Shown here piece after piece: positions 2,344-57,641 of a stretch of 64,000 bases of DNA. The number at the start of each line of letters is the position of its first letter. Positions within the stretch are counted from its first letter, which is position 1. A program made the position numbers and the translations under genes. A model generated the notes under the pieces. That model saw nothing but the letters and a program-made list of their open reading frames with translations. It made no database searches and was not told the origin of the DNA. This DNA is from Malacoraja senta (taxonomy: Eukaryota): the NCBI GenBank assembly GCA_038087875.1, contig CM075994.1:8186001-8250000 (forward strand). The letters run 5' to 3'.

Positions 2344-2414
2344 TGCGATTCAGGACCGTTACCTTGGATCACGCAATGAAGGTTACCGGATGCAAGACCC
2401 CGCTGCAACTCATG
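2344..2414 (+). CDS. C4: C4-like gene 1, internal exon (MG2; equivalent of C4 exon 4): (V)RFRTVTLDHAMKVTGCKTPLQLM
   Basis: tctag acceptor and gttagt donor, phase 1 to 0. Resembles C4 VRYRVFALD / C3 VLYRIFTVNH. In frame with the next exon. Confidence 0.85.
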
Positions 2415-4759: not shown

Positions 4760-5448
4760 GGAGTGCAGGTGCGTGGTTCCTTGAAGGTCGAGTCGCAGGT
4801 AGATAAGGTGGTCAAAAAGGTCGCACATTGGCCTTCATCAGTCAGAGTATTGAGTATAGAAGTTGGGAGGTCATGTTGCAGTTGTATAAGACGTTGGTGA
4901 GGCCGCATTTAGAGTATTGTGTTCAGTTCTGGGCACCATGTTATAGGAAATATATTGTCAAGCTTGAAAGGGTTCAGAGAAGATTTACAAGGATGTTGCC
5001 AGGATTAGAGGGTGTGAGCTACAGGGAGAGGTTGAGTAGGCTGGGACTATTCCATGGAGAGTAGGAGGATGAGGGGTGATCATATAGAGGTGTACAAAAT
5101 CATGAGAGGAATAGATCGGGTAGATGCACAGAGTCTCTTGCCCAGAGTAAGGGAATCGAGGACCAGAGGACAAGGTGAAGGGGAAAAGATTTAACAGGAA
5201 TCTGAGGGGTAACGTTTTCACACAGAGGGTGGTGGGTGTATGGAACAAGCTGCCAAAGGAGGTAGTTGAGGCTGGGACTATCCCAACGTTTAAGAAACAG
5301 TTGGACAGGTACATGGATAGGACAGGTTTGGAGGGATGTGGACCAAGCGCAGGCAGGTGGGACTAGTGTAGCTGGGACATTGTTGGCCAGTGTGGGCGAG
5401 TTGGGCCGAAGGGCCTGTTTTGCACTGTATCACTCTGTGACTCTATGA
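4760..5448 (+). mobile_element. CR1/HER1 LINE 3' fragment (many more, e.g. 7400-7880 -, 17075-17582, 19335-20360, 21352-22195, 32480-32980, 33650-34285, 53135-53830, 55450-55840, 58845-59290)
   Basis: CR1 ORF2 C-terminal motifs LYKTLVRPHLEYCVQFW, VQRRFTR, TRGH..K and FF.QRVV..WN.LP. Confidence 0.9.
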
Positions 5449-5571
5449 CCCCAAAGCTATCCAGCATCTCCTTATAACTCATAGCCTTCAGATATGGACA
5501 CATGAATCCTTGCTGCATCCGTCCCAGCCGAATGTCGTCCCTCCTGAAGTTTGTTTCTTGTTCCGCTGCAG

Positions 5572-5660
5572 AAAGAATACGAGATGGTGATGGAAGTTGA
5601 GACTCAAGTGCACGGGTCAGACAATGTCTGCAGAGGCGTGATACAGCTTACACCATCAAT
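5572..5660 (+). CDS. C4: C4-like gene 1 exon (MG2): KEYEMVMEVETQVHGSDNVCRGVIQLTPS(M)
   Basis: ctgcag acceptor and gtgagt donor, phase 0 to 2. Joins the next exon as AT|G=Met. Position matches C3/C4 exon 5. Confidence 0.8.
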
Positions 5661-7256
5661 GTGAGTCTTCAATGTTTCCAACTGTGGCATCCGGTGGGGT
5701 GTTCGTAGAGTAGGCATACAGGCCCACTGAAACACACTTACTATCAAACTCACTTTAATAGGAAGCTGAGATTTAATAGGGACCTGAGGGGCAACTTTTT
5801 TCACATAAAGGGCGGATCGTACCCGGGTCTCCAGCGCTGCAAACGCTGTAAGGCAGCAACTCATCCACTTCGCCACCGTGGCCGTCCATAGGTTTAAGGT
5901 GAAGGGGGAAAAGATTGAATAGGAACCTGAGGGGCAACATCTTTGCACAGAGGGTGGTGGGTGTATGGAACAAGCTGCCAGAGGAGGTAGTAGAGGCTGG
6001 GGTTAGACAGGTCCATGGATAGGACAGGTTTGGAGGGATATGGACCAAGCGCAGGCAGGTGGGACTAATGTAGCTGGGATATGTTGGCCGGTGTGGGCAA
6101 GTTGGGCCGAAGGGCCTGTTTCCATGCTGTATCTTTCAATCAAACAAAATTAGCCGCTGGAAATATCCAGGCTTTATCTTTCTGGTTTATGACACGGACA
6201 ATACATTCGAAGATAGACACAAAAAGCAGGAGCAACTCAGCAGGACAGGCAGTATCTCTGGAGAGAAGGAATGGGTGACTTTTCAGGTCGAGACCCTTCT
6301 TCAGACTGAGAGTCAGGGGGAGGCAGACACAGTGATATGGGGAAGGTAAGGTGTGAGAACACAGATCAAAGGGGACGATGCTCATGGAAATGTGGAGGCG
6401 TTCATTATTAGCAATTTGATCTGCCTCTCTTAACAGAGCAAGGGTCTGTGTGTGAGTACAAGCAAAGGCAGCAAAAAGTTTTGTGGACAGACACTCAGTG
6501 GGACAGGCAGCGTCTCTGGAATAAAATGAATAGGTGACGTATCGGGTCGGGACCCTTTTTCTTTCGTCGCGCGCCAAATCCTGCGCCCCATCCAACTCAT
6601 GAGCCGATGATCGGCCATGAGAAGGAGGGGTGGTGGTGGTGTTGGCGGTAAGCGAAGGTCCGAAGGTCGGACAGCTGGCCGGGCTGCCGACCGACGGGGC
6701 CACGGGCTGCTGCTGCACTCCATGGGCTGCACTACGTCGGGACGGGTGAGGCGGGGCCGGACGCGGCGCTCCGACCCGACAGTCCCCTCGACCCGAGTAG
6801 TAGCAGTCAAATACGGGACAAGGGCGGTCCCGTACGGGACAAACCAATTTAGCCCAATATACACGATGTCCCGGCTAATACGGGACAGTTGGCAACACTA
6901 GTCGGGACCAACCTTCCGTGGGAGTGTATCTTTCGTGACCATCTTCCATGTTTCAAATGTTGCCGTCGCTGTGAATGGCAGGACTTGATCGGACTTTGCT
7001 GGCTTTATCTTGCACTAAACGTTATTCCCTTATCATGTGTCTGTACACTGTAAATGGCTCGATTGTAATCACGTATTGTCTTCCCGCTGACTGGTTAGCA
7101 CGCAACAAAAGCGTTTCACTGTACCTCGGTACACGTGACAATAAACTGAAACTGAAAAATGGAGACTCAATACATAAAGTTATATCAAAGGATTATAATT
7201 TGTCAATACACTTTGACTGTGTTGTGATTGGACTCAAATTTTCTTTTTGTTTCAAG

Positions 7257-7342
7257 GGTTGGAGACTATGAGATTCAGGCCGACTCCACACAGTTGTACT
7301 CGGAGTTCAACGGTCACAGGAAGTTCCGGGTCGAGGAACCAG
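7257..7342 (+). CDS. C4: C4-like gene 1 exon (end of MG2): VGDYEIQADSTQLYSEFNGHRKFRVEEP
   Basis: Polypyrimidine tract plus ttcaag acceptor, gtgagt donor, phase 2 to 1. Resembles the G-W-I-A...F-V-E-Y segment ending MG2 in C3/C4. Confidence 0.85.
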
Positions 7343-10300
7343 GTGAGTTCAGCTGCACACACCTTTATTTGTTCTTACCTGTGGCCCAGGTGAGCATTAA
7401 TAGACAATAGACAATAGGTGCAGGAGTAGGCCATTCGGACCTTCGAGCCAGCACCGCCATTCAATGTGATCATGACTGATCATCCCCAATCAGTACCCCA
7501 TTCCTGCCTTCTCCCCATATCCCCTGACTCCACTATCTTTAAGAGCTCTATCTAGCTCTCTCTTGAAAGTATCAAGAGAACCGGCCTCCACCGCCCTCTG
7601 AGGCAGAGAATTCCACAGACTCACAACTCTCTGTGAGAAAAAGTGTTTCCTCATCTCTGTTCTAAATGGCTTACCCCTTATTCTTAAACTGTGACCCCTG
7701 GTTCTGGACTCCCCCAACATCGGGAACATGTTTCCTGCCTCTAGCGTGTCCAAACCCTTAACAATCTTATACGTTTCTCTCATCCTTCTAAACTCCAGAG
7801 TATACAAGCACAGCCGCTCCATTCTCTCAGCATATGACAGTCCCGCCATCCCGGGAATTAACCTTGCACTCCCTCAATAGCAAGAATGTAGAGTCACAGT
7901 GTCAAAGAGTCATACAGTGTGGAAAGGGCCCTTCGACCCAACTTGCCCACGCCGGCCAACATGTTCCAGCTGCACTAGTCCCACCTGACTGTGTTAGGCC
8001 CATATCCCTCCAAACCTGTCTATCCATGTACCTGTCCATAGAGTCATACGGCGTGGAAACAGGCCCTTCGGCCCAACTTGCCCACGCTGACCAATATGCC
8101 CCATCTACACTTATCCCACTTATCAGGCAACTGAACCATCCTACCACAACCAGAGAGCAGTCCTGAACTGCTATCTACTTCATCGGACTATCCTTGATTG
8201 GCCTTTGCTGGCTTTACCTCACACGAAGCAATTTAGAACGTAGATGAGGAAAAACCTTTTCACACGGAGGGTTGTGAATCTGTGGAATTCTCTGCCTCAG
8301 AAGGCAGTGATGGCCAATTCTCTGGATGCTTTCAAGAGAGAGTTAGATAGAGCTCTTAAAGATAGCACAATCAAGGGGTATGGGGAAAAGGCAGGAACGG
8401 GGTACTGATTGTGGATGATCAGTCATGATCACAGTGAATGGCGGTGCTGGCTCGAAGGGCCGAATGGCCTACTCCTACAACTATTGTCTATGTAAATGGC
8501 TCAATTATAATCATATTGTCTTTCCACTGACTGGATAGCCGGCAACAAAAGCTTTTCACTGTACCTCGGTACAGATGACAATAAACTAACTGCCAGCTGC
8601 CCGCGCTTGGTCTGTATCCCGTTAAACTTTTCCTGTCCATGTACCTGCTCAGAAAGGTATAAAGTGATACAGTGTGGGAACAGGCCCTTCAGCCCAACCT
8701 GCCCACATCAGCCAACATGCGCCATCTACACTATTGCCATCTGCAAAGGGGAAGATACAGAGTGCAGAATCTAGTTCTCAGCATTGTAACGCACCAGTTT
8801 CAGAGACAAAGTCTGTCCTCAATGGAGGTAGAGGTGAATCAGACAGCACCCTAGCAGATTGTAGGACTGTACAGAAGCCTGATAATAGTGGGGAAGAAGC
8901 TGTTCCTAAGTCTGGTGGTGTGCGCTTTAAAGCTTCTGTACCTTCTGCTGGAAGGTAGCGGGGAGAAGAGGGAATGACCAGGGTGTGACGTCCTTGATTA
9001 TGTCGGCTGCTTTCCCGAGGCAGCGTGAAGTGTCGGAGTCGATGGTGGGGATTCTGGTCCGTGTAATGGACTAGGCTACAGCCACAACTCTCTTTGGGAT
9101 GAATTCCTTCCCACCCAAACCACCCGCTCCCCAGGTACCTTCCCCTGCAACCGCAGGAGATGCAACACCTGCCCCTATACCTCCTCCCTCGACTCTGTCC
9201 AGGGACCCCGACAATCCTTTCAGGTTAGGCAGAGGTTCACTTGCACCTCCTCCAACCTCATCTACTGTATTCGTTGTTCAAGATGCGGACTCTTATACAT
9301 CGGAGACCAAACGCAGACTGGACAATCGTTTCGCGGAACACCTTCGCTCAGCCCGCCTGAACCTACCTGATCTACCGGTTGCCGGACACTTTAATTCTCC
9401 TTCCCATTCCCACACTGACCTTTCTGTCCTCGGTCTCCTCCATTGTCAGAGTGAGGCTAAACGCAAATTAGAGGAACAGCATCTCATATTTTGCTTGGGC
9501 AGCTTACAGCCCAGTGGTATGAACATTGATTTCTCTCCCCCTGAGTTACTCCAGCATTTTGAATCTATCCACATTTCCTTCCTACACCGTTTCTGCACTG
9601 TATCTCCAAACTAAAGCTAACCTAAAGATACAATCGTGATGTTAAAGAGGCGTTTGCATCAGCACATGATATGCAGGGAATGGAGGGATGTGGATCGAGT
9701 GCAAGCAGAGGAGATGAGCCATCGTGTTTGGCACGCAGATTGTCAAGTCAAGTCAAGTCAAGTGAGTTTATTGTCATGTGTCCCTGGTAGGACAATGAAA
9801 TTCTTGCTTTGCTTGAGCACAACAGAACATAGTAGGCATTGACTACAAGGCATTCTATAAATATATACACAATGGTCAATATACTGATAAAGTGCAAATA
9901 ACAGTATTGGCTAATAAAGTTCAGTGTTATGTCCGAGCCAGGTTTAATAGCCTGATGGCTGTGGGGAAGTAGCTATTCCTGAACCTGGTCGTTGCAGTCT
10001 TCAGGCTCCTGTACCTGAAGGTAGTAGGGAGATGAGTGTGTGGGCAGGATGGTGTGGGTCCTTGATGATGCTGCCAGCCTTTTTGAGGCAGCGACTGTGG
10101 TAGATCCCCTCGATGGAAGGGAGGTCAGAGCCGATGATGGACTGGGCAGTGTTTACTACTTTTTGTAGTCTTTTCCTCTCCAGGGCACTCAAGTTGCCGA
10201 ACCAAGCCACGATGCAACCGGTGTGTGTGTGTGTGTGTGTGTGGGCGCATGCGCGGGGCCACCAAGGAATTAAGTTCATGTTCATTTATTGTCACATACA

Positions 10301-11478
10301 CTAGGGACATACACCAAGGGATTGTGGGCCAAAGCATGGGCGGAAATCCGGGGGTGACACGTCCCCTCCATGTTTCGCTTTGAGAGGGGGGGGACAATGC
10401 CCCCCCCCCCCCATGTTTTGTAATCCGGATTTTGAAATTCGGTGAAAATAATCTATTAAAATCTGCGTTTTCCACGAGACAGTGGGGGCGTCACTGTGAA
10501 ACGCTTGTTAAATGTCTCTATTAACATCGTATTAACACCATGTGTCACCAATTGTGTTTTGACCTTCAAGTATTACTGAAGGTATTCACAGAGAATTTCT
10601 TAAAGCTGTCTGATGCGGGTACAATTACCATTTGAACTAATTGGATGTATTGGTGGATGGGAAAGATTTAAACGGGTATCGGATTTAAACGGGTCAGGTG
10701 ATTAGGCTCCGGTCGAGCGGGTTTCCTGGCTGGCTTTCATCGCCCGGCGCGGCTTAAAATCAAACTGCTGCATCGAGGCGATCGAGGCTCCCGATGTTGA
10801 AGCCCCCTCCGGCCGATTTTAAGCTGCGCTGGGCGATGAAAGGCCTTGCGAACGGGCCGATTCAAGCCCCAGGATTCGGGGGCGGACGAAGCTGCTGTTG
10901 CTGGAGTTCGGAGTCGGTCACCAAGCAGGTCAGCTCCCGAAGGTAGACAAAAATGCTGGAGAAATTCAGCGGGTGATGGCAGCATCTATGGAGCGAAGGA
11001 ATAGGTGACGTTTCGGGTCGAGACCCTTCCTCAGATTAGGTCTGAGGAAGGGTATGAGGAAGGGTCTCGACCCGAATCGTCACCCATTCCTTCGCTCCTT
11101 AGATGCTGCCTCACCCGCTGAGTTTCTCCAGCATTTTTGTCTACCTTCAATTTTTCCAGCATCTGCAGTTCTTTCTTAAACAGGTCAGCTCCCGGTGTTT
11201 CCGTCCACAGGGCCCACGGCTGAAGCCTCCAAAGCCTTGTGTGTGTGTGTGTGTGTGTGTGTGGGCGCATGCGCGGAGCCACCGAGGAATTAAGTTCATA
11301 AGTTCATTTATTGTCACATACACTAGGGACATACACCAAGGAATTGTGTCCCCCCCCCCCCATGTTTTCATTGTGATTTCCGCCCGGAAGGGCCTGTTCC
11401 TGTGCTGTACTGTCCCATGTTCTAAGTTCCATGAGTTCCATCAACACTCTGACCCTCTTCCCTTTGTCCCTTTAGCAG

Positions 11479-11567
11479 GTGAGAAGGAGGAGGAGGTCCT
11501 ATCACAGATTGTCCACCTGACAAAGACGAGACGCTTCTTTATACCTGGATCACCTTTCCGAATCCAG
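11479..11567 (+). CDS. C4: C4-like gene 1 exon (start of MG4): GEKEEEVLSQIVHLTKTRRFFIPGSPFRIQ
   Basis: tttagcag tandem acceptor (start 11476 or 11479), gtatct donor, phase 1 to 0. Resembles C4 GEMEEAEL...LSKTKRHLVPGAPFLLQ. Confidence 0.9.
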
Positions 11568-12941
11568 GTATCTGTGAGATTATCGTGTTGAGATTATTAT
11601 ACTGTGTGGTTGGATGCAGGGTGGGGTGGGAGGTGGGGAGGTTCCTTGGTTCATCAGCCACACACGAGCACTACCGATTTTCCGGCACCCTTGGTTCCAG
11701 GGCCTTGCCGGATTATCCGCGTTGCCGGACCAACAGAGGTCCCGGCCTCCGAGAGGAGTCCAACGGCACCGGAATGTTCCGCCGGGGAGCCGAGGTATCG
11801 GCCCGCAAAGTCCGTCTTTGGAAGTCGGATATGGGAACGGATCTGCTGGCTCCAGCCGGGCCGGAGTTCCAGAGCTCCAGCCGCAGGGGTCAAATCCGAC
11901 CCGCTGAGCGGCCGCGGAAGTCCCGATGAGGTCGAGATCGGCCGCCTCACCCGGACTAGGGGCCACATTTTCGGGGGAACTTCCAGGGGGGATTTCAAGC
12001 GCACTCTCGTAATTTTGTCCGGATTAAAGGATTTGCCGGAACACCAGTTGCCGGAGAATGGGTGGTCGGCCTGTACATTCTCTGGAGCCTAGTTCCTCAG
12101 TGAACCTTACCGAATAGTGAAAGGCCTGGATAGAGTGGATGTGGAGAGGATGTTTCCACAAGTAGGAGAGTCTAGGACCAGAGAGCACAGCCTCAGAATT
12201 AAAGGACGTTCCGTTAGGAAGGAGATGAGGAGGAATTTCTTCAGTCAGAGGGTGGTGAATCTGTGGGATTCATTGCCACAGACGACTGTGGAGGCCAAAT
12301 CAGTGGATATTTTTAAGGCAGAGATAGATAGATTCTTGATTACTACGGGTGTCAGGGGTTATGGGGAGAAGGCTGGAGAATGGGGTTGGGAGGGAGAGAT
12401 AGATCAGCCATGATTGAATGGCGGAGTAGACTTGATGGGCCGAATGGCCTAATTCTGCTCCTATCACTGATGAACTAATGAACATAATAACTGCAAGCAT
12501 TAGCCTCCTTGAATCCAGGAGTGTTCCTGGTGAGTGAGGCCTAGCTTTCCAGTCGGCCTCGTAGGCCCGGCTTATCCACCTGCGTCATTCCCTGCGGCCG
12601 GGGCTTTGGAACTCCAGCCCGGCCGGACCCGGCAGATCTGTTCCCAAAGCCTTGACCTCCGAGGCCGATTTTGCGGGCCGGTATCTCGTAAATGATAGGA
12701 GGAGAATTAGGCCATTCGGCCCATTAAGTCTACTCTGCCATTCAATCATGGCTGATCTATCTCTCCCTCCTAACCCATTCTCCTGCCTTCTCCCCGTAAC
12801 CCCTGATACCCGTACTAATCAAGAATCTGTCTATCTCTGCCTTAAATATATCCATTGACAACCTTCACAGCCTAGTGTGGCAAAGAATCCCACAGATTCA
12901 CCACCCTCTTTGGTTGAAGATCGATCTTCAACTTCGACCTT

Positions 12942-13255
12942 AGGGCGGCACGGTGGGGCAGCGGTAGAGTTGCTGCCTCATGGCGCCAGAGACCCGGGTT
13001 CGATCCTGACTACGGGTGCTGTCTGTACGGAGTTTGTGCGTTCTCCCCGTGACCTGCGTGGGTTTTCTCCGAGATCTTTGGTTTCCTCCCACACTCCAAA
13101 TACGTGCAGGTATTCAGGCTAATTGGCTTTGGTGTAAATGTAAATGTCCCTAGTGTGTGTAGGGTAGTGTTAGTGTGCGGGGATCGCTGGTCGGTGCGGA
13201 CTCGGTGGGCCGAAGGGCCTGTTTCCACGCTGTATCTCGAAACTAAACTAAACTT
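12942..13255 (+). mobile_element. tRNA-derived HE1/V-SINE-type SINE (further copies e.g. 14073-14385 -, 23632-23945 +, 43325-43630 -, 44660-44985 -, 56570-56850 -)
   Basis: tRNA-like A box and B box (GGTTCGATCC), central V-domain-like core, 3' tail shared with the CR1/HER1 fragments, (CTAAA)n end. Confidence 0.85.
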
Positions 13256-13281
13256 TGCAATACCATGGGTTTATGTTACAG

Positions 13282-13455
13282 GCATTGGTTACCCACCCAG
13301 ATGGCACACCTGTTCCCATGGCACCCATCAAGGTCTCGATACTTATCTCCGAGAAGAAGTCCATACAGGAATCTAAACAAGGATTTACGGACAAACTTGG
13401 CGAGATGAGTATTTCCTTCGTTGTTCCAGAAGATGCCAGGGAGATGTATGTAACG
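13282..13455 (+). CDS. C4: C4-like gene 1 exon (MG4): ALVTHPDGTPVPMAPIKVSILISEKKSIQESKQGFTDKLGEMSISFVVPEDAREMYVT
   Basis: ttacag/gtgagt boundaries, 174 bp, phase 0-0. Resembles C4 ALVREMSGSPASGIPVKVS...TDGSGQVSI and C3 VTNPDGSP. Confidence 0.92.
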
Positions 13456-15265
13456 GTGAGTGTGGTTCCAAGGAGAAGACTTGTATGGTCAAAGGCGGAC
13501 AAAAATGCTGGAGAAACTCAGCGGGTGAGGCAACATCTATGGAGCGAAGGAAATAGGCGACGTTTCGGGTCGAGACCCTTCTTCAGACTGATGTGAGGGT
13601 GGGGGTAAGAAAGGAAGAGGAGGAGCCAGAGGGCCGAGGGAAGGCTGAGAAGGGGAGGAGAAAGTAGGGGCTACCTGAATTGAGAGAAGTCAATGTTCAT
13701 ACCGCTGGGGTGCAAACTGCCCAAGTGAAATATGAGGCGCAGCTCCTCCAATTTACGGTGGGACTCACTCTGGGCATGGAGGAGGCCCAGGACAGAAAGG
13801 TCGGAATCGGAATGGGAGGGGGGGAGTTGAAGTGCTGAGCCCACCGGGAGATCAGGTTGGTTAATGCGAACTGAGCGGAGGTGTTGGGCGAAGCGATCGC
13901 CAAGCCTACGCTTGGTCTCACCGATGTAGAGCAGCGGATGCAATAGATGAGGTTGGAGGAGGTGCAGTATGGCCAAACAAGTCTTGAATGAATAAAGCAT
14001 TCACTCACTCATTCACTCACTCATTCTTTCATTCACTCATTCACTCATTTATTCATACATTCATTCAAGACTTTAGTTTAGTTTACAGAAACAGCGTGGA
14101 AACAGGCCCTTCGGCCCACCGGGTCCACGCCGACCAGCGATCCCCGCGATTAGCACTACCCTACACACTCACTAGGGACAATTTTTTCATTTATACCAAG
14201 CCAATTTACCTACAAACCTGCACATCTTTGAAGTGTGGGAGGAAACCGAAGATCTCGGAGAAAACCCACGCAGGTCACGGGGAGAACGTACAAACTCCGT
14301 ACAGACAGCACCCGTAGTCAGGATCGAGCCCGGGTCCCTGGCGCTGTGAGGCAGCAACTCTACCGCTGCGCCATCGTGCTGCCCTTTTTTGATCTAAAGA
14401 TTGATCTCACAGAGATGTATTGATCTTATAGGAGGTTTCACACCAGTAGGGTCTGAAGAAGGGTCTCGACCCAAAACGTCACCCGTTCCTTCTCTCCAGA
14501 GACGCTGCCTGTCCCGCTGAGTTACTCCAGCATTTTGTGCATATATTTGGTTTAAACCAGCATCTGCGGTTCCTTCCTACACAGTGGAAACATTTAGTTT
14601 AGTTCAGAGCTACAGCGTTGAAACAGGCCCTTCGGCCCATCATGTCCGCGCCAACCTGTGCACTAATACTCTCGTACACACTAGGGGATAATTTACTGAG
14701 GCCGATAAACCTACAAACCCGCACGTCTTTGGAGTGTGCGAGCACAATGATCTATTATACATTCTCTTTGTACTTCCTCCCCTTTGATCTCTCCTTTTCA
14801 CACCTTACCCTTCCATATCTCTCACTTCCCTCTCCCCGTGACTCTCACTCTGAAGAAAAGGGTCTCGACCAGAAACGTCGCTCATTCCTTCTCACCAGAG
14901 ATTCGTTTAGTTTTTACAATCGATACAGCGCGGAAACAGGCCCTTCGGCCCACCGACTCCGCGCTGACCAGCGACCCCCCGCACATTAGCACTATCCTAC
15001 ACACACTAGGGACAATTTACACATATACCAAGCCAATTAAGGTACAAACCTGGAGTGTGGGAGGAAACCGAAGATCTCGGAGAAAACCCACGCAGGTCAC
15101 GGGGAGAACGTGCAAGCTCCGTACAGACAGCACCAATCGTCGGGTTCGAACCCGGGTCGCCGGCGCTGTAAGGCACCGTGGGTCACGCCAACGTTTTGTG
15201 TTTCTGCTGTTCCTTCCTGCACAGATTATCGTTAGCATCATCGTTTGCCTCCTCTATCTGCACAG

Positions 15266-15454
15266 GCTAGTGTCAACGACACCCGTGGCAATGAAGTGAA
15301 GAGTGAGATCGCCATTAAGCCCCATCAGAGTAACCAGGTCTACATGTACATCGATGTGCCCAATGTCCTACTGTACGCTGGAGACACCATTAACGTCACA
15401 CTGACAGATCTGGGCCCGGCTAACAGCAGCACTGTGGAACAATATTACTACATG
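15266..15454 (+). CDS. C4: C4-like gene 1 exon (MG4/MG5): ASVNDTRGNEVKSEIAIKPHQSNQVYMYIDVPNVLLYAGDTINVTLTDLGPANSSTVEQYYYM
   Basis: gcacag/gtgagt boundaries, 189 bp, phase 0-0. Has the GDT.N.L motif and ends in YYYM, as C4 does. Confidence 0.92.
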
Positions 15455-20788: not shown

Positions 20789-20983
20789 ATCCTGAGCAAA
20801 GGAAAGCTTCTCCACCACGAGAGAATTGAGAGATCGACCAACACATATGTCCAGGTTAACATCACGCAAGACATGGTCCCGTATTTCCGTATGGTAGCCT
20901 ATTACGTCACAGACGTCCACGGCCAAAGTAATCTAGTCTCGGACTCGGTGCGGGTGGAGGTCGAGGAGTCCTGTGACCTTCAG
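20789..20983 (+). CDS. C4: C4-like gene 1 exon (MG5): ILSKGKLLHHERIERSTNTYVQVNITQDMVPYFRMVAYYVTDVHGQSNLVSDSVRVEVEESCDLQ
   Basis: gtctag/gtttgt boundaries, 195 bp. Contains the A2M_N_2 family motifs ILSKG, P.FR.VAYY and V.DSV.V.V..SC. Confidence 0.95.
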
Positions 20984-23900
20984 GTTTGTGGTGGGTTTGC
21001 TACATATATTGGGGGGGTGGGGGGGTCCGTTAATTATCTTGTCCACGGATATCAACGATGCCCAAATCGGTAGGACTTTATGTTGGAAGGAACTGCAGAT
21101 GCTGGTTTAAACTGCAGATAGACACAAAAAGCCGGAATCTTCTTCTTCTTGCGAATGAAACATAAACCAAAGCGCTGGTTAGATCTCAAGCGGGTGTTGA
21201 GCAGCCAGGTTGTTGTCTCTGCGGCAATGTCTGCCAGGCCCTGACAGAGCTCCATTTGGTGGGTGGTTAGAATTGATGTGACATGGTTGACAGTCTGTTG
21301 TTCTGGTCCGCATTCACAGGCTGGGCTCTGGCGGAGTCCCCATCTCCACATTTTTGTGTGTGCAGTTTTGGTCCCCTAATTTGAGGAAGGACATTCTTGC
21401 TATTGAGGGAGTGCAGCGTAGGTTCACAAGGTTAATCCCCGGGATGGCAGGATTGTCATATGTTGAGAGAATGGAGCGGCTGGGCTTGTACACTCTGGAG
21501 TTNNNNNNNNNNNNNNNNNNNNNNNNNNNNNNNNNNNNNNNNNNNNNNNNNNNNNNNNNNNNNNNNNNNNNNNNNNNNNNNNNNNNNNNNNNNNNNNNNN
21601 NNNNNNNNNNNNNNNNNNNNNNNNNNNNNNNNNNNNNNNNNNNNNNNNNNNNNNNNNNNNNNNNNNNNNNNNNNNNNNNNNNNNNNNNNNNNNNNNNNNN
21701 NNGGAGTGCAGCGTAGGTTCACAAGGTTAATCCCCGGGATGGCAGGATTGTCATATGTTGAGAGAATGGAGCGGCTGGGCTTGTACACTCTGGAGTTTAG
21801 AAGGATGAGAGGATATCTCATTGAAACATATAAGATTGTTAAGGGTTTGGACACGCTAGAGGCAGGAAACATGTTTCCTATGTTGGGGGAGTTCAGAACC
21901 GGGGGCCACAGTTTAAGAATAAGGAGTAAGCCATTTAGAACGGAGACGAGGAAACACTTTTTCTCACAGAGAGTGGTGAGTCTGTGGAATTCCCTGCCTC
22001 AGAGGGCGGTGGAGGCAGGTTCTCTGGATGCTTTCAAGAGAGAGCTAGATAGGGCTCTTAAAAATAGTGGAGTCAGGGGATATGGGGAGAAGGCAGGAAT
22101 GGGGTACAGATTGGGGATGATCAGCCATGATCACATTGAATGGTGGTACTGGCTCGAGGGGCCGAATGGCCTACTCCTGCACCCATTGTCTATTGTCACA
22201 TGCTGGCATTGAAACACCCAACTCCAGCACCAAGTCAGTTGAGCTTCACCCATGCTCCTCTGGGGAGGTCAGACCCTGGACAGCTTTTACCTGGTAAAGC
22301 CATAGTAACACATAGTCATAGAGTAATGCAGTGTGGAAACAGGCCCTTTGGCCCAACTCACCCACACTGGCCAACAATGTCCCAGCTACACTAGTCCCAC
22401 CTGCCTGCGCTTGATCCATAACCCTCCAAACCAGTCCTGTCCATGTACCTGTCCAACTGTTTCTTAAACGTCGGGATAGTCCCAGCCTCAACTACCTCCT
22501 CTGGCAGCTTGTTCCATACACCCACCACCCTTTGTGTGAAAAAGTTACCCCTCGGATTCCTATCAAATCATTTCCCCTTCTCAGCGAGTGTGAAAAGGAA
22601 TGGGTGACGTTTCGGGTCGAGACCCTTCTGAAGAAAGGACTCAAACCCAAAAAGTCACCTGTACCTTTTCTGTGGGACATTGTATTGGCCACAATTTCAT
22701 GAATTGAGTTGAATGGTGGCATAGACTTGATGGGCTGAAAGGCCTAATTCTACTCTTATCACTTATGTCCTGTTGACAATTCGCTGCAATTTCTTGCGGT
22801 TTTGGATGGAGCTGTTCCCAAACCAAGTTGTGATGCATCCCGATAAATGATTTTCTGCAGTGCATCTGTTGAAGTTTGTGGTTCATTTATGAATTTGAGT
22901 TTGGTTTATTGTCACGTGTACCGAGGCACAGTGAAAAGCTTTTTGTTGCGTGCTAACCAGTCAGCGGAAAGACAATACATGATTACAATTAAGCCATTCA
23001 CAGTGTACAGATACATGATAAGGGAAAAACGTTTAGTGCAAGGTAAAGCCAGTAAAGTCCGATCAAGGATAGTCCGAGGGTCGCCAATGAGGTAGATAGT
23101 AGTTCAGGACTGCTCTCTGGTTGTGGTAGGATGGTTCAGTTGCCCAATAACAGCTGGGAAGAAACTGTCCCTGAATCTGGAGGTGTGCGTTTTCACACTT
23201 CTGTACCTCATGCCCGATGGGAGAGGGGAGAAGAGGGAGTGGCCGGGGTGCGACTGGTCCTTGATTATGCTGCTGGCCTTGCCGAGGCAGCGTGAGGTGT
23301 AGATGGAGTCAATGGAAGGGAAGCTAGACACAAAAAGCTGGAGTAACTCAGCGGGACAGGAAGCATCTCTGGAGAGAAGAAATAGTCTCAGGGTCTCCAA
23401 TGAGGTAGATGGGAGGTCAGGACTGCTCTCTAGTTGGTGAAAGAACAGTTCAGTTGCCTGATAATAGCTTGGAAGAAACTCTCTTGCCAGAGGGGAGAAG
23501 AGGGAGTGGCTGGGGTGAGACTGGTCCTTGATTATGCTGCTGGCCTTGCCGAGGCAGCGCGAGGTGTAGATGGAGTCAATGGAAGGAAGGAAGGGTCTCG
23601 ATCCGAAACGTTACCCATTCCTTCTCTCCAGAGCGGCACGGTGGCGCAGTGGTAGGGTTGCTGCCCTATGGCGAATGCAGCGCCGGAGACCCGGGTTCGA
23701 TCCCGACTATGGGTGCTGTCTGTACGGAGTTTTCACGTTCTCCCCGTGACCTGCGTGGGTTATCTCCGAGATCTTCGGTTTCCTCCCACACTCCAAAGAC
23801 GTGCGGGTTTGTAGGTTAATTGGTTTGGTGTAAATGTAAAAATCATCCCTAGTGGGTATAGAATAGGGTTAACGTGTGGGGATCGCTGGTCGGCGTGGAC

Positions 23901-24141: not shown

Positions 24142-24288
24142 ATCCAGATCCTGCCCAGCCTGTTCATGGAAGCTGACCGGGGGTACCTGCTCCTGACTAT
24201 CTTCACCAACCGCTCAGCAGATGTCCACGTGCAGGCGGTGGACAACCAACTGGCCAAAGCTCACGTCGACCTGGGGATCTACGAGCAG
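24142..24288 (+). CDS. C4: C4-like gene 1 exon (MG6-beta): IQILPSLFMEADRGYLLLTIFTNRSADVHVQAVDNQLAKAHVDLGIYEQ
   Basis: ttgcag/gtgaga boundaries, 147 bp, phase 0-0. Keeps the A.V...AVD motif. Confidence 0.88.
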
Positions 24289-32274: not shown

Positions 32275-32401
32275 GTTTTTTACCGGAAGGACCTGTACGA
32301 TTTTGGCATCTCTTACGGAGGAGGCCGGAACGCCGCGGCTGTCTTCGAGGATGCGGGACTGCGCTACCTCTCCGATCTGTTGCCCTCGTCGGAACTGAGC
32401 A
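32275..32401 (+). CDS. C4: C4-like gene 1 exon (LNK): VFYRKDLYDFGISYGGGRNAAAVFEDAGLRYLSDLLPSSELS
   Basis: ttgcag/gtgagt boundaries, 127 bp, phase 0 to 1. Matches C4 VF....SYDLGCGPGGG.....VF..AGL, but the Cys is replaced by Ile. Confidence 0.93.
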
Positions 32402-34439
32402 GTGAGTAGGGGGAAACGCAACGGGAAACGGCGGAGAGAGTGTGTGCAGATGGACGATATAAGATAGGAAATAATATAGAAATGGTGTTGTCAAGCTTGA
32501 AAGGGTGCAGAGAAGATTTACGAGGATGTTGCCAGGACTAGACGGAGCTATTGGGAGAGGTTGAGCAGGCTGGGTCTCTATTCCATGGAGCGCAGGAGGA
32601 TGAGAGGTGATCTTATAGAGGTGTATAAAATCGTGAGAGGAATAGATCGGGCAGACGCACAGAGTCTCTTGCCCAGAGTAGGAGAATCGAGGACCAGAGG
32701 ACATAGGTTTAAGGTGAAGGGGAAAAGATTTAATAGGAATCTGAGAGGTAACTTTGTCACACAAAGGGTGGTGGGTGTATGGAACAAGCTGCCAGAGGAG
32801 GTAGTTGAGGCTGGGACTATCCCAATGTTTAATAAACAGTTAGACAGGTACATGGATAGGACAGGTTTGGAGGGATATGGTCCAAGCGCAGGCAGGTGGG
32901 ACTAGTGTAGCTGAGGCATGTTGGCCGTTGTGGGCAAGTTGGGCTGAAGGGCCTGTTTCCACGCTGTATCACTCTATGACGCTAAAGGACTGAAACATGG
33001 AAGCTAATTACCTGGATGGTGAGAGAGTGGGGAGAGGATGTTTCCACTAGTGGGAGAGTCCAGGACCAGAGGACACGGCCTCAGAATTAAAGGACGTTCC
33101 TTTAGAAAGGAGATGAGGAGGAACTTCTTTAGTTAGAGGGTGGTGAATCTGTGGAACTATTTGCCACAGACAGTTGTGGAGGCCAAGTCAGTGGGTATTT
33201 TTAATGAAGCGATAGATAGATTCTTGAGTTTAGTAGAATGAGGGGGGACCTCATTGAAGCGTATGGAGGGATGCAAGTCCGATCGGCCGCGGAAGTCCCG
33301 ATGAGGTAGAGATCGGCCGCCTCACCCGGACTAGGCGCCACATTTTCGGGGGGACTTCCAGGGGGGATTTCAAGCGCACTCTCGTAATTTTGTCCGGATT
33401 AAAGGAGTTGCCGGATCACCAGTTGTCGGAATAGATGTGTGGTGGGCCTGTATATTCTCTGGAGCCTAGTTCCTCATTGAAACTTCCCAAATAGTGAAAG
33501 GCCTGGATAGAGTGGATGTGGAGAGGATGTTTCCACTAGTGGGAGAGTCTAGGACCAGAAGTCACAGCTTCAGAATTTATGGATGTTTTTTAGGAAGGAG
33601 ATGAGGAGGAATTTCTTCAGTCAGATGAGTGCCCTCTGCTCTATTAGAAAGATGATGGCCTTCATAACAAGAGGAGTTGAGTATAGGAGCAAATAGGTCC
33701 TTCTGCAGTTGTACAGGGCCCTAGTGAGACCACATCTGGAGTATTGTGTGCAGTTTTGGTCTCCAAATTTGAGGAAGAACATTCTTGCTATTGAAGGAGT
33801 GCAGCGTAGGTTCACGAGGTTAATTCCCAGGCTGGCGGGACTGTCATATGCTGAGAGAATGGAACGGCTGGGCTTGTATTCTCTGGAATTTAGAAGGATG
33901 AGAGGCTATCTTATTGAAACATATAAGATTATTAAGGGATTGGACACGCTAGAGGCAGGAAACATGTTCCCGATGTTGGGGGAGTCCAGAACCAGGGGTC
34001 ACAGTTTAAGAATAAGGGGTAAGCCATTTAGAACGGAGATAAGGAAAAACGTTTTCACCCAGAGAGTTGAGTCTGTGGAATTCTCTGCCTCAGAGAGCAG
34101 TGGAGGCCGGTTCAAGGGATGCTTTCAAGAGAGAGGTATTTAGGGCTCTTAAAGATAGCGGTCAGGGGATATGGGGAGAAGGCAGGAATGGGGTACTGAT
34201 TGTGGATGATAAGCCATGATCACATTGGGTGGCGGTGCTGGCTCGAAGGGTCGAATGTCCTACTCCTGCACCTATTGTCCATTGTGAATGTGGGGAATTC
34301 ATTGCCACAGAAGGCTGTGGAGTCCAGGTCATTGGGTATTTTTAAGGCAGAGATAGATAGATTCTTGAGTTTATTAATAATTCAGGTATCTGAGGTTATC
34401 TCCCCGTAACCCCTGACACCCGCACTAATCACGAATCTA

Positions 34440-36052
34440 CAGTGGCTTGCAAAAGTTTTCATACCCCTTGAAATCTTCCACATTTTGTCACGTTACAACC
34501 ACAAACGTAAATGTATTTTATTGGGATTTTATGTGATAGACCAACACAAAGTGGTGCATAATTGTGAAGTGGAAGGAAAATGATACATGGTTTTCAAATT
34601 TTTTTACAAATAAAAAACTGAAAAGTGTCGCGTGCAAAAGTATTCAGCCCCCCTGAGTCAATACTTTGTAGAACCATCTTTCGCTGCAATTACAGCTGCA
34701 AGTCTTTTGGGGTATGTCTCTACCAGCTTTGCACATCTAGAGTGAAATGTTTGCCCATTCTTCTTTGCAAAATAGCTCAAGCTCAGTCAGATTGGATGGA
34801 GAGCGTCTGTGAACAGCAATTTTCAAGTCTTGCCAGAGATTCTCAATTGGATTTAGGTCTGGACTTTGACTGGGCCATTCTAACACATGAATATGCTTTG
34901 ATCTAAACCATTCCATTGCAGCTCTGGCTGTATGTTTAGGGTCGTTGTCCTGCTGGAAGGTGAACCTCCGCCCCAGTCTCAAGTCTTTTGCAGACTCTAA
35001 CAGGTTTTCTTCCAAGATTGCCCTGTATTTGGCTCCATCCATCTTCCCATCAACTCTGACCAGCTTCCCTGTCCCTGCTGAAGAAAAGCATCCCCACAGC
35101 ATGATGCTGCCACCACCATGTTTCACAGTGGGGATGGTGTGTTCAGGGTGATGTGCAGTGTTAGGTTTCTGCCACACATAGCGTTTTGCATTTAGGCCAA
35201 AAACATCAATTTTGGTCTCATCTGACCAGAGCACCTTCCACCACATGTTTGCTGTGTCCCCCACATGGCTTGTGGCAAACTGCAAACGGGACTTCTTATG
35301 GCTTTTTTTCAACAATGGCTTTCTTCTTGCCACTCTTCCATAAAGGCCCGATTTGTGGAGTGCACGACTAATAGTTGTCCTGTGGACAGATTCTCCCACC
35401 TGAGCTGTGGATCTCTGCAGCTCCTCCAGAGTTACCATGGGCCTCTTGGCTGCTTCTCTGATCAATGCTCTCCTTGCCCGGCCTGTCAGTTTAGGTGGAT
35501 GGCCATGTCTTGGTAGGTTTGCAGTTGTGCCATACTCTTTCCATTTTCGGATGATGGATTGAACAGTGCTCCGTGAGCTGTTCAAAGCTTGGGATATTTT
35601 TTTATAACCTAACCCTGCTTTAAACTTCTCCATAACGTTGTCCCTGACCTGTCTGGTGTGTTCCTTGGGCTTCATGTTGCTGTTTGTTCACTAATGTTCT
35701 CTAACAAACCTCTAAGGCCTTCACAGAACAGCTGTATTTATACTGAGATTAGATTACACACAAGTTGACTCTTTACTAATTAGGTGACTTCTGAAGGCAA
35801 TTGGTTGCACTGGATTTTATTTAGGGGTATCAGAGTAAAGGGGGCTGAACACTTTTGCACGCGACACTTTTCAGTTTTTTATTTGTAAAAAAATGTGAAA
35901 ACCATGTATCACTTTCCTTCCACTTCACAATTATGCGCCACTTTGTGTTGGTCTATCACATAAAATCCCAATAAAATACATTTACGTTTGTGGTTGTAAC
36001 GTGACAAAATGTGGAAAAGTTCAAGGGGTATGAATACTTTTGCAAGCCACTG
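34440..36052 (-). mobile_element. Tc1-family (DD34E) DNA transposon, 1613 bp
   Basis: Ends CAGTGGCTTGCAAAAG / CTTTTGCAAGCCACTG, with ~200-bp inverted repeats and TA target duplication (34438-39, 36053-54). Confidence 0.97.
34737..35675 (-). CDS. Tc1 transposase (312 aa; C-terminal ~27 aa lost to a frameshift)
   Basis: Paired-like HTH N-terminus plus WSDETK, QQDNDPKH and SPDLNPIE motifs. The expected tail SRCAKLVETYPKRLAAVIAAKDGSTKY* continues in another frame. Confidence 0.92.
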   Translation of the reverse strand: MKPKEHTRQVRDNVMEKFKAGLGYKKISQALNSSRSTVQSIIRKWKEYGTTANLPRHGHPPKLTGRARRALIREAAKRPMVTLEELQRSTAQVGESVHRTTISRALHKSGLYGRVARRKPLLKKSHKKSRLQFATSHVGDTANMWWKVLWSDETKIDVFGLNAKRYVWQKPNTAHHPEHTIPTVKHGGGSIMLWGCFSSAGTGKLVRVDGKMDGAKYRAILEENLLESAKDLRLGRRFTFQQDNDPKHTARAAMEWFRSKHIHVLEWPSQSPDLNPIENLWQDLKIAVHRRSPSNLTELELFCKEEWANISL

Positions 36053-36237
36053 TAAATCTCTTTTTTAAAAATATCCACCGACTTGGCCTTCTTTGGCAAT
36101 GAATTCCACACATTCACCACTGGACTATTTTATTCAATCATGTGAGGGGAGCATTTCTATAACGAGAGGGGCAGCCCAGACGTAAAATGCTGGAGTAACT
36201 CAGCGGGACAGGCAGCATCGCTGGAGAGAAGGAATGG

Positions 36238-36272
36238 GTGACGTTTCGGGTCGAGACCCTTCTTCAGACTGA
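36238..36272 (-). ncRNA. Minimal hammerhead ribozyme motif in a Penelope-derived repeat (also 13558-13590 -, 43803-43833 +)
   Basis: Minus strand reads gt-CTGAAGA-A-GGGTC-TC-GACCC-GAAA-CG-TC-ac: the conserved core, stem II and a palindromic minimal stem III. Confidence 0.6.
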
Positions 36273-36791
36273 GAGTCAGGGGAGAGGGAGACAAGGGATT
36301 TTGATGATGATGATATAGAACAATGAATGAAAGATCATACATCATTGTCTATATCTCTCATCTCCCTCTCCCCTGACTCTCAGTCTGAAGAAGGGCCTCG
36401 ACCAGAAACATCACCCAATCAGTCAATGAATCAGTCAATTTTTATTGTATAGCATATTTAAAAACAACTCACGTTGACCAAAGTGCTGTACATCAGTGCA
36501 TGTACTAATGTGCTACATACAATGGTACACAGACCTAACAATACATACATAAACTGTTTACAGCGCCCCCTCAGAGGGACTCAAAAATGCTAGGGAGTAG
36601 AAATAGGTTTTAAGCCTCGACTGAAAGGAGTCGATGGGAGGGGGCAGTTCTGATGAGGAGAGGGAGGCTGTTCCACAGTCTAGGTGCTGCAACCGTAAAA
36701 GCGCAGTCACCCCTGAGCTTAAACCTGGATCGTGGGATAGTCAGTAGCCCCAAGTCGGCCGACCTGAGGGACCTGGAGGTAGAATGGTGGG

Positions 36792-37379
36792 TGTTACGAC
36801 TCCCGAATGCAGGTACTTCAGAGCCGCGTAACATAATCCAAAAAGCAGGTTCAAGTTCAAAAATAGTTTTAATTATTCAATGGAACACAAAACCCAAACC
36901 TGATTCCAACAAACCAGTCAGGGATATGGATGGACTAAGAAACAATTTAACAGTGCTCCAGCCAGCCACGTGATGGACCGTCGAACCAGAGACTCTAAAA
37001 CATGCCTAAAGAGATATAACCCTGAAACAAAATACACGAAAACACTAAGGTCAGCCCTTATCCGTCCCAATTCAATATTTGTAATTAAGTAATTGTGAAA
37101 GTACACAAAGTTCTATGCCATGTGGCCAGGCCTTCCGCAGCTCACTCCAGCAGTCAGCTCACCAGTCAGGGTCGACGAAGAAGAGCGAGAATCCTGGGAA
37201 GGCTCTGGTATTTAAGCTTCAGATGAGTCACCCGTCACCTGACGCAGCTTGGCCAATCGGGTACAGGAGTCTTTTAACCCTTTGATTCCAGACTCACAGC
37301 CACAAGGCCTGCACTCGGGAAAGAAACAGAGAAAGGTAAGTACATAGCATTCACCAGGGGGGGGGGGGAGCACCTAACA
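36792..37379. mobile_element. Solo LTR (588 bp)
   Basis: Begins TGTTA and ends TAACA, flanked by an exact 5-bp duplication GTGGG. Interrupts an L2-like LINE fragment. Confidence 0.8.
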
Positions 37380-40235
37380 GTGGGCTAGAAGATTTTTTAT
37401 ATATTCCTTGTCTCTAGAGATGCTGCCTGTCCCGCTGAGTTACTCCAGCACTTTGTGTCTATCATTGAACACTGCTATATTCGGTTTAAACCAGCTGATC
37501 CCCATGCACTAGCTCGAGTTCTGCAGTCCTGACACTGCTATCATCTGTCTAAACAGCAGTTCCTTCCGACACGGTGGTAGAGCTGCTGCCTTTCATCGCC
37601 AGGCCAGCGATCCCCTATCCTACACACACTAGGGACAAGTTACAATTTACAGAAGCCAATTAATCTACAAACCTGCACAACTTTGGAGTGTGGGAGGAAA
37701 CCGGAGCACCCGGAGAAAACCCACGCTCGTCACGGAGAGAATGTACGGACAGCGCCTGTGGTCGGGATCATTCCCGGGTCTCTGGGGCTGTGAGGCAGCA
37801 ACTCTACCGCTGCGCCGCTGTGCTGGACCTGCCTAGATGACGGGACTAATTATTCATATGCCTCTCTCTAGCAAAGTTACAACATTTTGAGATTTAAAAA
37901 ATCAAGTCTGCAATTTATCCCATCAGATAAAGCATAAAAATAAGTTTATTTTGACACTTAATTCACTTTCATATCTTCAGTATTAAAAAGTTATGGCTAT
38001 TTTCATACTCGGAAATTAGCATCTTGTTCCCTATTGCTTTTCCATTGACTTAACACAAAAGCTGTGATCAAGGACAGTCAAAAGCCCATAACTTTCTTAA
38101 AAATCAAGAGAACTGAATGAAATGTTCAGTTATTATAGATTGAAGAATTCTGAAACAAATATAAAACATCTTACTTGGATGACCTGAAATTAAAGCATAT
38201 AATTAGTTAGTTAGCTAATTGTAATTAATTACAAAATTGACTGTTGTGACAGAAATAGTAATAAACACCCAGACTGCCTTGAAAATTCAAAAATGTGATA
38301 TTCTCAAGATCAGAACTTTAATATTATTGTATTATATGCTGTAAATCCGTAAGATAGGTAAATAAATTAAAATTTCTAGCAATAGACCAAGTCTTTATGG
38401 AGAAGATCAGTTGCTAGCTGGTACATTGGCACATCATAATCAGTAACATCATCATACTCCTCAGATTGTAACCAATAAGCAACTCTGTACACCTTGTTTT
38501 TCCACAACTTCAATTTTGGCATTGTAAACTACAAGTTTTTGCTCTTCAAACCACGCATGACATGCCTTTCTGCCCACTACTTTCCCATTAAGAATGTCCT
38601 GTAGATTCCATTTCTTACAAAAAGGATATTTTAGAAAAATAGGCTAAGTATCCAAATAACAAACTGATCCCATTCACACTAGAATTCACAATATAACATG
38701 ATTTTTAAATCTCACTGTCATGAATTTATATGCCAGATGGAAGGAATTTAATGTTTAATTCCCATAAATTAATCGAGAAACATCCACTCAATATAATTTA
38801 AATTATTATTTTTTGCACAATACATGGGACTAAAACTGATATTTAGTATAATAATATTGACGATGGATAGACAATAACACAAAATATTGACTATTTAGAT
38901 GCTCTTGTGACATGATTGTCCAAAAAAAAAGCATTTAAATCATCTAGCAAGTGGGTTTTTCTGGAACGCGATCGATTGGAACATTGTATTTGTGGTGAAT
39001 TTGAACCCCATATCGGCAAGAAAAACACTGCCGGTTCGTATGGGGCCCAAATCACATATTCGCATCGTAAAATTTGATTAAAGCCATCCCAAGAAACAAG
39101 TTTATATGTAAAATAAATTGACTTACATTTTGTTTTGTCCCGTTCATGTGATCCGTCACGTTGTAGGCATTGAGGGCGTTAGAAGTCGCTTTTTATTTTA
39201 ATGTAATTATTAAATTGTCTCGCGATTAAATAAATCGTGAACGGAAGTCCGATCGATTGTTCTTCAGCAGCTGGCAGCCCGAGAAAGTCCGCCTCCGACA
39301 GGCAGTAGAAAACTCAATTTTAATCCTCCCCCCCCCCAAAGGCGCCAAAGTCGTGCACACGGCCAGTGGCAGAACTGCAACGCCGCTGAAGGTAAGTTTT
39401 GTAACATTGCTACGCTCTCTCTCGAGCTGCACCTTGTTAAACCCCTTCATCCCTCTGCCCCTTATGTGAGACGGCCACAAGAAACACACTGATTGATCAG
39501 TTCAGTTTAGTTTATTGTCACGTGTACCGAGGTACAGTGAAAAGCTTTTGTTGGGTGCTAACCAGTCAGCGGAAAGACTATACATGATTACAATCGAGCC
39601 ATCCACAGTGTACAGATACATGATGAGGGAATAACGTTTAGTGCAAGGTAAAGCCAGTAAAGTCCGGTCAAGGATAGTCCGAGGGTCTCCAATGAGGTAG
39701 ATAGTAGTTCAGGACTGCTCTCTGGTTGTGGTAGGATGGTTCAGTTGCCTGATAACAGCTGGGAAGAAACCGTCCCTGAATCTGGAGGTGTGCTTTTTCA
39801 CACTTCTGTATCTCTTGCCCGATGGGAGAGGGGAGAAGAGGGAGCGACTGTGCGACTGTCGCCGGGGTGCGACTGGTCCTTGATTATGCTGCTGGCCTTG
39901 CCGAGGCAGCGTGAGGTGCAGATGGGATCGATGGAAGGGAGGTTGGCTTGTGTGATGGTCTGGGCTGCTGGACTTGCCGAGGCAGCGTGAGGTGTGGATG
40001 GAGTCAATGGAAGGGAGCTTGGTTTGTGTGATGGTCTGGGCTGCGTCCACAACTCTCTGCGATTTCTTGCGGCATGGAAGGTGTGGGAAGTTATGGGTTT
40101 GGGAAACAATTTCAAAGGATGTTGAGGGGGTGATGTTGCACCTGTATAAGAGGGCACATTTAGAGTGTCGTGTTCAGTTCAGGTGTCGATGGAGTCAGTG
40201 GAAGGGAGGTTGTTTCATCGTTTGATTATTTGCAG

Positions 40236-40286
40236 AGGTGTCGTCTGTTCCATGGCACAGAAGTCAGCTGCAGACACCGAGATATG
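40236..40286 (+). CDS. Candidate 51-bp linker exon of gene 1: (K)VSSVPWHRSQLQTPRY(D)
   Basis: tttgcag acceptor and G|gtgagc donor, open, phase 1-1, in non-repeat-looking sequence at the position of the C4 beta/alpha junction exon. No clear homology. Confidence 0.55.
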
Positions 40287-40331
40287 GTGAGCCACGATCA
40301 ATTTATTCAACATGGAACACATTGTGATCAT

Positions 40332-42256: not shown

Positions 42257-42353
42257 ATCTGGAGATGGAGCACCCTTTTCCTACCATACAGCCCTTGTAC
42301 GAGACGTCCTGGATGTGGGAAATACAGAATACCACGGGGAAAAAGACTTTTCG
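42257..42353 (+). CDS. C4: C4-like gene 1 exon (alpha'NT / MG6-alpha): LEMEHPFPTIQPLYETSWMWEIQNTTGKKTF(R)
   Basis: gtgtag/gtatga boundaries, phase 1 to 2. YETSWMW corresponds to the FPE[S/N]WLW motif, and the exon starts LE like C4 (A)LEIL. Confidence 0.85.
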
Positions 42354-57571: not shown

Positions 57572-57641
57572 GTAAGTAGATGGTTTCTCACCCACCGCTG
57601 GGTAGCGTGTTATGTGAAGGGAAGGGGGGAGCAGAGGCATG

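Follow-up and report, generated by a model that had tools for sequence, protein, structure and literature searches.

A miniature C4 gene without MG3 in a skate genome and its relatives in cartilaginous fish

Exon structure of the skate gene

In a stretch of 64,000 nucleotides from the skate Malacoraja senta (GenBank assembly GCA_038087875.1, contig CM075994.1, forward-strand positions 8,186,001 to 8,250,000; hereafter the window), we found a short gene of the complement C4 type on the forward strand, lying beside a second, C4-like gene. The exon model was guided by tblastn with the Amblyraja radiata ‘C4-B-like’ model and a 651-residue Pristis pectinata model. It comprises 12 exons that lie between 2344 and 45142, each with AG/GT borders, which splice to an open frame of 458 residues with 0 stops that encodes, in order, MG2, a 10-residue linker, MG4, MG5, MG6a, LNK, a short spacer and MG6b. 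The spliced protein is identical to the Amblyraja model at 307/346 positions and is 48–64% identical to 12 orthologues, with alignment gaps never longer than 15 residues. Almost certainly, the gene is intact and belongs to a family of ~630-residue miniature C4 proteins found in chondrichthyans, with the order signal peptide, MG1, MG2, charged linker, MG4, MG5, MG6a, LNK, spacer, MG6b and stop.

The exons for the signal peptide and MG1 presumably lie upstream of window base 1. MG2 is encoded by the first exon in the window (2344–2414, phase 1 to 0, found with P0004 and matching the skate model P0025) and by exons at 5572–5660 and 7257–7342, the last of which ends the domain at a phase-1 donor. 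The next exon (11479–11567) carries the last MG3 strand, remade as a charged linker, and then the start of MG4, for which there is a weak Pfam match. Its acceptor is a tandem CAG-CAG at 11476–11479 from which either choice is in frame and changes the linker by one residue; the 11479 form, not the alternative at 11476, aligns with the ray orthologues. MG4 continues at 13282–13455 and gives way to MG5 within 15266–15454. The MG5 exon at 20789–20983 is 95% identical to the Amblyraja ‘C4-B-like’ model P0003 and 71% to the Pristis model, and its terminal cysteine is the homologue of the one that the beta chain contributes to the beta-alpha disulfide. Further downstream are exons for MG6a (24148–24288) and for LNK, the best-conserved region of the family (32275–32401), a 51-nucleotide exon at the position of the furin site and anaphylatoxin of C4 (40236–40286), an exon joining an alpha’-NT-like stretch to the start of MG6b (42257–42353), and an MG6b exon with a phase-1 donor (45075–45142). 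The last coding exon (~15 codons, containing the stop and the partner cysteine of this disulfide) probably lies inside the assembly gap at 45302–45501. Existing skate gene models are split at the intron where MG3 would be expected: P0025 reads through the 7342 donor, and P0003 begins in the following exon. An intron also carries a 14-bp tandem array of ~84 copies at 40331–41461.

The gene shares with C4 of jawed vertebrates common ancestry, MG1, MG2, MG4, MG5, a split MG6, LNK and a cysteine pair of the beta-alpha type. C4 has ~1700 residues in three chains, whereas the family described here has a single chain of ~630 residues. Besides MG3, the gene has lost the furin site, the anaphylatoxin domain (ANA, C4a in C4), the thioester domain (TED), MG7, CUB, MG8 and C345C, all of them present in C4 and absent from the short family. 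No thioester motif of the CGEQ type occurs in the short proteins (0/16), and no TED remnant was found in window positions 1–57500. An RxK/RR motif near the beta-alpha site was not found in the short proteins, and an RIRR motif in four sharks sits inside MG5, not at a chain junction. Similarly, no ANA remnant is present in 32402–42256, no remnant of an alpha or gamma chain in the window before 57500, and no MG7, CUB, MG8 or C345C in the window ahead of the next gene; the orthologues themselves end past MG6b.

The MG3 site in sharks and rays

A search with the sawfish protein returned 20 matches among 7998 candidates scored, consisting of 12 near-complete orthologues, four partial models and four longer paralogues. 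The 12 near-complete orthologues (586–659 residues) come from 11 species, four rays and seven sharks, and in all of them MG2 is joined directly to MG4 and the protein ends just past MG6b. Pfam MG3 was detected in 0/12, as compared with 29/29 long C3/C4/C5-type controls picked from 150 listed representatives. The charged linker between MG2 and MG4 has 14–20 residues in the orthologues and 10 in the window protein (10–20 in 13/13), against 123–127 residues in four measured MG3-bearing proteins. It starts in the exon that carries the last MG3 strand in C4, and is the least conserved part of the family, with a ray-shark identity of 0.20 versus 0.45–0.63 in the folded parts. Since all 12 near-complete orthologues join MG2 to MG4 by a short linker, the loss of MG3 is real and old and not an assembly fault. 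The anatomy is firm, and the ancient domain deletion marks a miniature C4 family. A first-pass annotation of this DNA, made from the letters alone, had proposed a clean MG3 loss in a C3/C4-like gene; that loss stands, but as a deletion common to sharks and rays instead of a local event.

The interval itself, a repeat-rich intron of 4136 nucleotides at 7343–11478, occupies the site of the MG3 exon block of C4. As the same annotation had described, it is flanked by the exons at 7257–7342 (VGDYE...FRVEEP, phase-1 GT donor) and 11476/11479–11567 (GEKEEEVL...FRIQ) and contains no N, the only gaps of the window being at 21503–21702 and 45302–45501. A collapsed assembly at this point does not account for the absence, given that the same MG2-MG4 junction recurs in 12/12 near-complete orthologue models. 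Within the interval, MG3 of the four closest paralogues gave a best E of 0.053 and MG3 of eight C4 proteins a best E of 0.24, neither of them a remnant, which supports a clean loss of the block; as a positive control, the same eight C4 proteins recover the next two exons at E ~1e-5 to 1e-3. Exon-sized hidden Markov models (HMMs) run over 5400–13600 gave MG3 matches at E ≥1.1 at best, with limited power, as control exons were recovered in 2/4 cases. We rank the orthologue evidence above these local searches. In C3 and C4 the MG3 block comprises exactly three exons (exons 7–9), and because it lay between two phase-1 junctions, the frame was kept when it was lost.

The annotation had also assigned almost all of the interval to repeat debris. 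Repeats that occur elsewhere in the window make up 63% of it, which bears out its repeat-rich character and falls short of “almost all”. Pfam names none of the ten repeat open reading frames (ORFs) tested in the interval, and an eleventh is the MG4 match at the exon; by their motifs, the repeat ORFs look CR1-, Penelope- and Rex-like, class names that Pfam does not confirm. These repeats are ordinary intron filling and not a demonstrated cause of the MG3 loss. The conserved tyrosine at the end of MG2 is indeed changed (VEEP), as had been pointed out. As a mark of the deletion it is rejected in favour of later drift, because the Heptranchias orthologue retains FQVKDY at this position. The intron also holds a direct duplication of 108 bp with 95% identity (10221–10326 and 11241–11348), the copies of which flank a stretch of ~900 bp and may mark an insertion.

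Six cysteines are invariant across the orthologues. Two pairs, in MG1 and MG2, are extra ones, and both members of the pair between MG5/6a and MG6b are invariant in 12/12 orthologues and align to C3 positions, from which we infer a bond between them. Hydrophobic N-termini in 11/12 orthologues (the remaining model starts later) suggest that the protein is secreted. These are automatic NCBI models named ‘C3-like’ or ‘C4-B-like’, and 8/12 carry the label ‘C3-like’. In catsharks, the partial models P0020 and P0022 have the same MG2-MG4 junction, and P0020 drops an MG5 exon. Two copies of the MG3-less type occur in Mustelus asterias (P0011, P0013) and in Scyliorhinus torazame (P0010, P0016); therefore, the MG3-less branch was duplicated again in some sharks. 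Among 127 proteins covering both MG2 and MG4, 15 have less than half of MG3: 11 belong to this family, and four are other C3- or C5-like models, in which MG3 may have been mispredicted or lost in parallel. Two of these four (the C3-like P0085 and P0129) skip exactly the MG3 block, with the same junction, and this fits a block of three exons.

Origin from C4 and predicted structure

A sister paralogue has the same reduced plan and keeps MG3. It is represented by P0017, P0018, P0019 and P0021 (‘complement C3-like’; 758–846 residues) and by the unnamed P0023 and P0024, the six together spanning 758–899 residues. Like the window protein, it is without ANA and thioester and stops at the same place, after MG6b; unlike it, the paralogue retains an MG3 of ~120 residues, and the two are 35–40% identical. 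Pfam sees this MG3 weakly (2/6, below cut-off), and the domain folds in the predicted model with a predicted local distance difference test score (pLDDT) of 74–92. In four of the species that carry the MG3-less gene, the MG3 of the paralogue is predicted normally. A model of 321 residues from Callorhinchus milii (P0081) ends at MG6b, is without ANA and belongs to the short clade; it retains a basic, furin-like site past LNK and possibly represents a stage at which the reduction was less advanced and the protein still had two chains. In P0072, the MG5-LNK part of the MG3-keeping paralogue is fused to a further stretch whose motifs resemble those of a PRY-SPRY (TRIM-type) domain; this is probably a merged gene model and hints at a neighbouring gene. 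P0071, a C3-type protein of 793 residues, has MG3 and no ANA, so that loss of ANA also occurs outside the short C4 family.

We placed the family in a tree of 55 sequences (54 of ~165 proteins and the window model; 603 columns) from which partial models and most of the distant representatives were left out, with C3, C4 and C5 labels taken from Pfam CUB sub-families and seven rows unlabelled. The short proteins fall into a single clade (100/100), which is joined to C4 (100/100), and within this clade the MG3-less group (99.8/100) and the MG3-keeping group (100/100) are each monophyletic. On this tree, the gene derives from C4. Despite the ‘C3-like’ labels, a sister placement to C3 is rejected by the approximately unbiased (AU) test under three model and alignment settings (p = 1.2e-5, 1.5e-4 and 2e-9), as is a sister placement to C5 (p = 1e-36, 2.3e-6 and 1.2e-4), even though human C5 is the slightly better match for single exons and folds. 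The A2M/CD109/insect TEP branch was also discarded, with CD109 at E ~1e-14 and TEP1 at ~1e-8 versus 1e-36 to 1e-51 for C3, C4 and C5. A placement as sister to all C4 is not rejected (AU 0.14–0.27), and the tree does not single out one C4 as the parent.

The distribution of the two groups suggests a history in three steps. A C4 copy would have been truncated where MG6 meets MG7 and deprived of ANA in a chondrichthyan ancestor; the truncated copy would then have been duplicated; and one duplicate would have lost the phase-1-to-phase-1 MG3 block before the shark-ray split while the other kept it. This order of truncation, duplication and MG3 loss is likely. The chimaera-shark and shark-ray splits date to ~400 and ~280 million years ago, respectively.

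AlphaFold2 predicts the MG3-less shark protein with pLDDT 78.8 and a predicted template modelling score (pTM) of 0.79; the domains are ordered, and the MG2-MG4 linker (pLDDT <50) and the spacer at the former ANA position are disordered. The model overlays the C4 beta chain (5jpm_A) over 511 residues with an rmsd (root-mean-square deviation) of 3.8 Å and Z 37.6, and that of the MG3-keeping paralogue over 616 residues with rmsd 3.7 Å and Z 36.2. The models thus predict that the C4 ring is retained with the place of MG3 empty and that the two branches differ by one domain. Structure matches also invited comparison with C3c, C3* and cobra venom factor, which are likewise MG rings without an active thioester. 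C3c and cobra venom factor retain MG3, MG7, MG8 and C345C, and they are released from a full-length precursor by proteolysis, whereas the skate reduction lies in the gene itself.

The accessible part of a cryo-EM report on C3 (bioRxiv 10.1101/2024.04.15.589532) describes a C3* intermediate in which MG1, 2, 4, 5, 6 and LNK are ordered and MG3 is without density, so that its ring, as in the MG3-less protein, stands without an ordered MG3. The same source places ANA between MG3 and MG8 in C3, has MG7 and MG8 lock MG3, and shows the LNK helices facing the MG3 side of the ring. For the convertase, the portions available of two further papers (PMC12922740, PMC12847986) indicate that C2 attaches to C345C, that MG3 of the substrate is read by the protease, and that C4b and C3 are in contact at two sites, one of MG4-5 and a second of MG3/6/7. 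MG3 would therefore have become dispensable in the short family once ANA, MG7, MG8 and reading by the convertase protease were gone: we suggest that it could be deleted because its C3-type holding partners had gone first.

Possible functions and the neighbouring gene

Five of the six ring domains of C4 remain, but everything by which C4 is activated and adheres to microbes has gone, which implies a job other than that of C4. With these parts missing, the MG3-less protein would be incapable of C4-like cleavage, covalent attachment, C2 binding or convertase building. We tentatively propose that it is a secreted single-chain ring beyond activation and most likely acts as a decoy or regulator of complement. 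This is our first reading because MG4-5 is what remains of the known interfaces of C4. The MG4-MG5 face, where C4b and C3b dock their substrate, would be kept, and the protein would damp complement by occupying the docking site on C3/C5 or on the convertase in the manner of compstatin. Consistent with this, MG5 has the most invariant columns among the MG domains (39/105), and the prolines that correspond to P383 and P478 of human C4 occur in 12/13 and 11/13 proteins, respectively. Blockers of the compstatin and CRIg type would share the principle of occupying a C3 surface that the convertase needs, as far as the consulted text of PMC12922740 and PMC12847986 goes; they are unrelated molecules, and the likeness is a hypothesis of mechanism, not of membership. 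A more far-reaching and doubtful version sees a cartilaginous fish family of soluble C4-ring regulators dating back at least to the chimaera-shark split, whose MG3-less branch, deprived of the mobile gate of the ring, would be a permanently open five-domain ring that blocks convertase docking via MG4-MG5, an endogenous counterpart of compstatin.

Several results weigh against the decoy reading or the account on which it builds. Among the contacts of human C4b MG4-5, two of nine residues are kept, both of them prolines; the charged contacts are not kept, yet they are absent in non-mammalian C4s too, so that this comparison does not discriminate. According to the sections seen of PMC12922740 and PMC12847986, MG7, MG3 and alpha’-NT are required for the second contact between C4b and C3; with MG7 and MG3 absent, a single site would have to carry any binding. 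Ray-shark identity is highest in LNK (0.63) and not in MG5 (0.58), and many of the invariants in LNK and the spacer are new and not C4-like, a pointer to a different binding site. The ring in the predictions may reflect C3/C4/C5 structures used in training. As to the history, support for the position of the chimaera fragment (46/79), and with it for the root inside the short clade, is weak, which affects the order of events; as to the anatomy, the last coding exon was not found in 45143–58500. A complex prediction of P0008 MG4-MG5 with MG4-MG5 of the unnamed C3 P0057, run without alignments, gave 0.04 and 0.08, against a mark of 0.34, values that weigh neither for nor against the decoy. Taken as a whole, the explanation that joins the miniature C4 anatomy, this history and a decoy or regulator role stands a little below an even chance.

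It is also quite possible that the same anatomy and history led to a job outside the convertase step, in which the opened ring would bind some other ligand (a plasma protein, a receptor, matrix or a microbial surface) through LNK and the spacer as a carrier, adaptor or non-covalent opsonin. Half of the LNK columns are invariant (25/50), seven of them not common to C4, and the spacer has six invariant columns, four of them not common to C4. The two extra invariant cysteine pairs in MG1 and MG2, the location of the LNK helices on the MG3 face of the ring (in the accessible part of the C3 report cited above) and an identity to C4 of 0.17–0.39 per folded domain, which implies that much of the surface has been remodelled, speak for the same idea. 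The new invariants of LNK and the spacer support a new ligand about equally with a decoy; a candidate ligand is lacking, the gene still adjoins a C4-like gene, and the conserved residues could be structural if LNK and the spacer pack into the space vacated by MG3.

That the gene is a transcribed yet dispensable remnant of a partial C4 duplication in slow decay is improbable. Every known effector part of C4 has gone, the skate models P0025 and P0003 are split, and the catshark model P0020 lacks its MG5 exon; such a remnant would nonetheless have to explain an open frame and canonical splice sites kept up through 12 exons and 43 kb of introns filled with repeats, models of full length in 11 species, six invariant cysteines and a ray-shark identity that is more than twice as high in the folded parts as in the linker. 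Still less credible is an artefact of assembly or annotation in which the assembly collapsed, or gene predictors skip, the MG3 exons and perhaps the remainder of C4. The two gaps lie elsewhere in the window and the interval is gap-free; four other proteins have little or no MG3, P0085 and P0129 skipping the exact block, and the HMM controls recovered 2/4 exons, but the same junction is found in 12/12 near-complete models from 11 separately assembled species and in the partial P0020 and P0022, the MG3 of the sister paralogue is predicted normally in four of the same species, and changes in linker length follow a history of their own.

The family is apparently undescribed. In the literature searched, no C4 of cartilaginous fish is described as short or as lacking MG3; such transcripts could be mentioned by Nonaka et al. 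2017, by Goshima et al. 2016 or in the chapter by Smith and Nonaka, which are known to us as references only. The text available of PMC10751288 reports three elasmobranch c4 genes (c4a-D, c4b-H and a third c4), all defined by the catalytic residue, and that of PMC7768046 treats two short whale-shark C4 matches of 721 and 445 residues, conceivably members of the short family, as incomplete. Short C4 forms are not mentioned in the portions consulted of PMC9207270 and PMC6795676. Surveys of fish complement count full-length C3, C4 and C5 and discard short matches as incomplete, and here the short form is a conserved family. Its two branches, with and without MG3 and both free of an alpha chain, differ by one whole domain and offer a natural test of MG3 as a detachable gate of the macroglobulin ring. 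If the protein regulates complement, it would be of a kind not listed for vertebrates in the literature examined, insofar as its accessible text extends, and a minimal scaffold for the MG4-MG5 docking site.

The second gene starts at ~57.5–58.6 kb, on the same strand and downstream of the miniature C4. A candidate signal-peptide exon at 57507–57571 was picked by eye from eight heuristic candidates; an MG1 exon (58576–58768) and an MG1-MG2 exon (60699–60879), both on the forward strand, were identified by protein match. Together, these two exons are identical at 62/123 positions to the full-length C4 P0027, the best of the proteins compared; P0027 has CTEQ at its thioester site instead of the usual motif. 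A fusion transcript from the phase-1 donor at 45142 into the 58576 exon (phase 2) would be out of frame and is rejected. Between the two genes, directly after the second gap, several kilobases of C/T-rich low-complexity sequence extend from 45511 to 51100.

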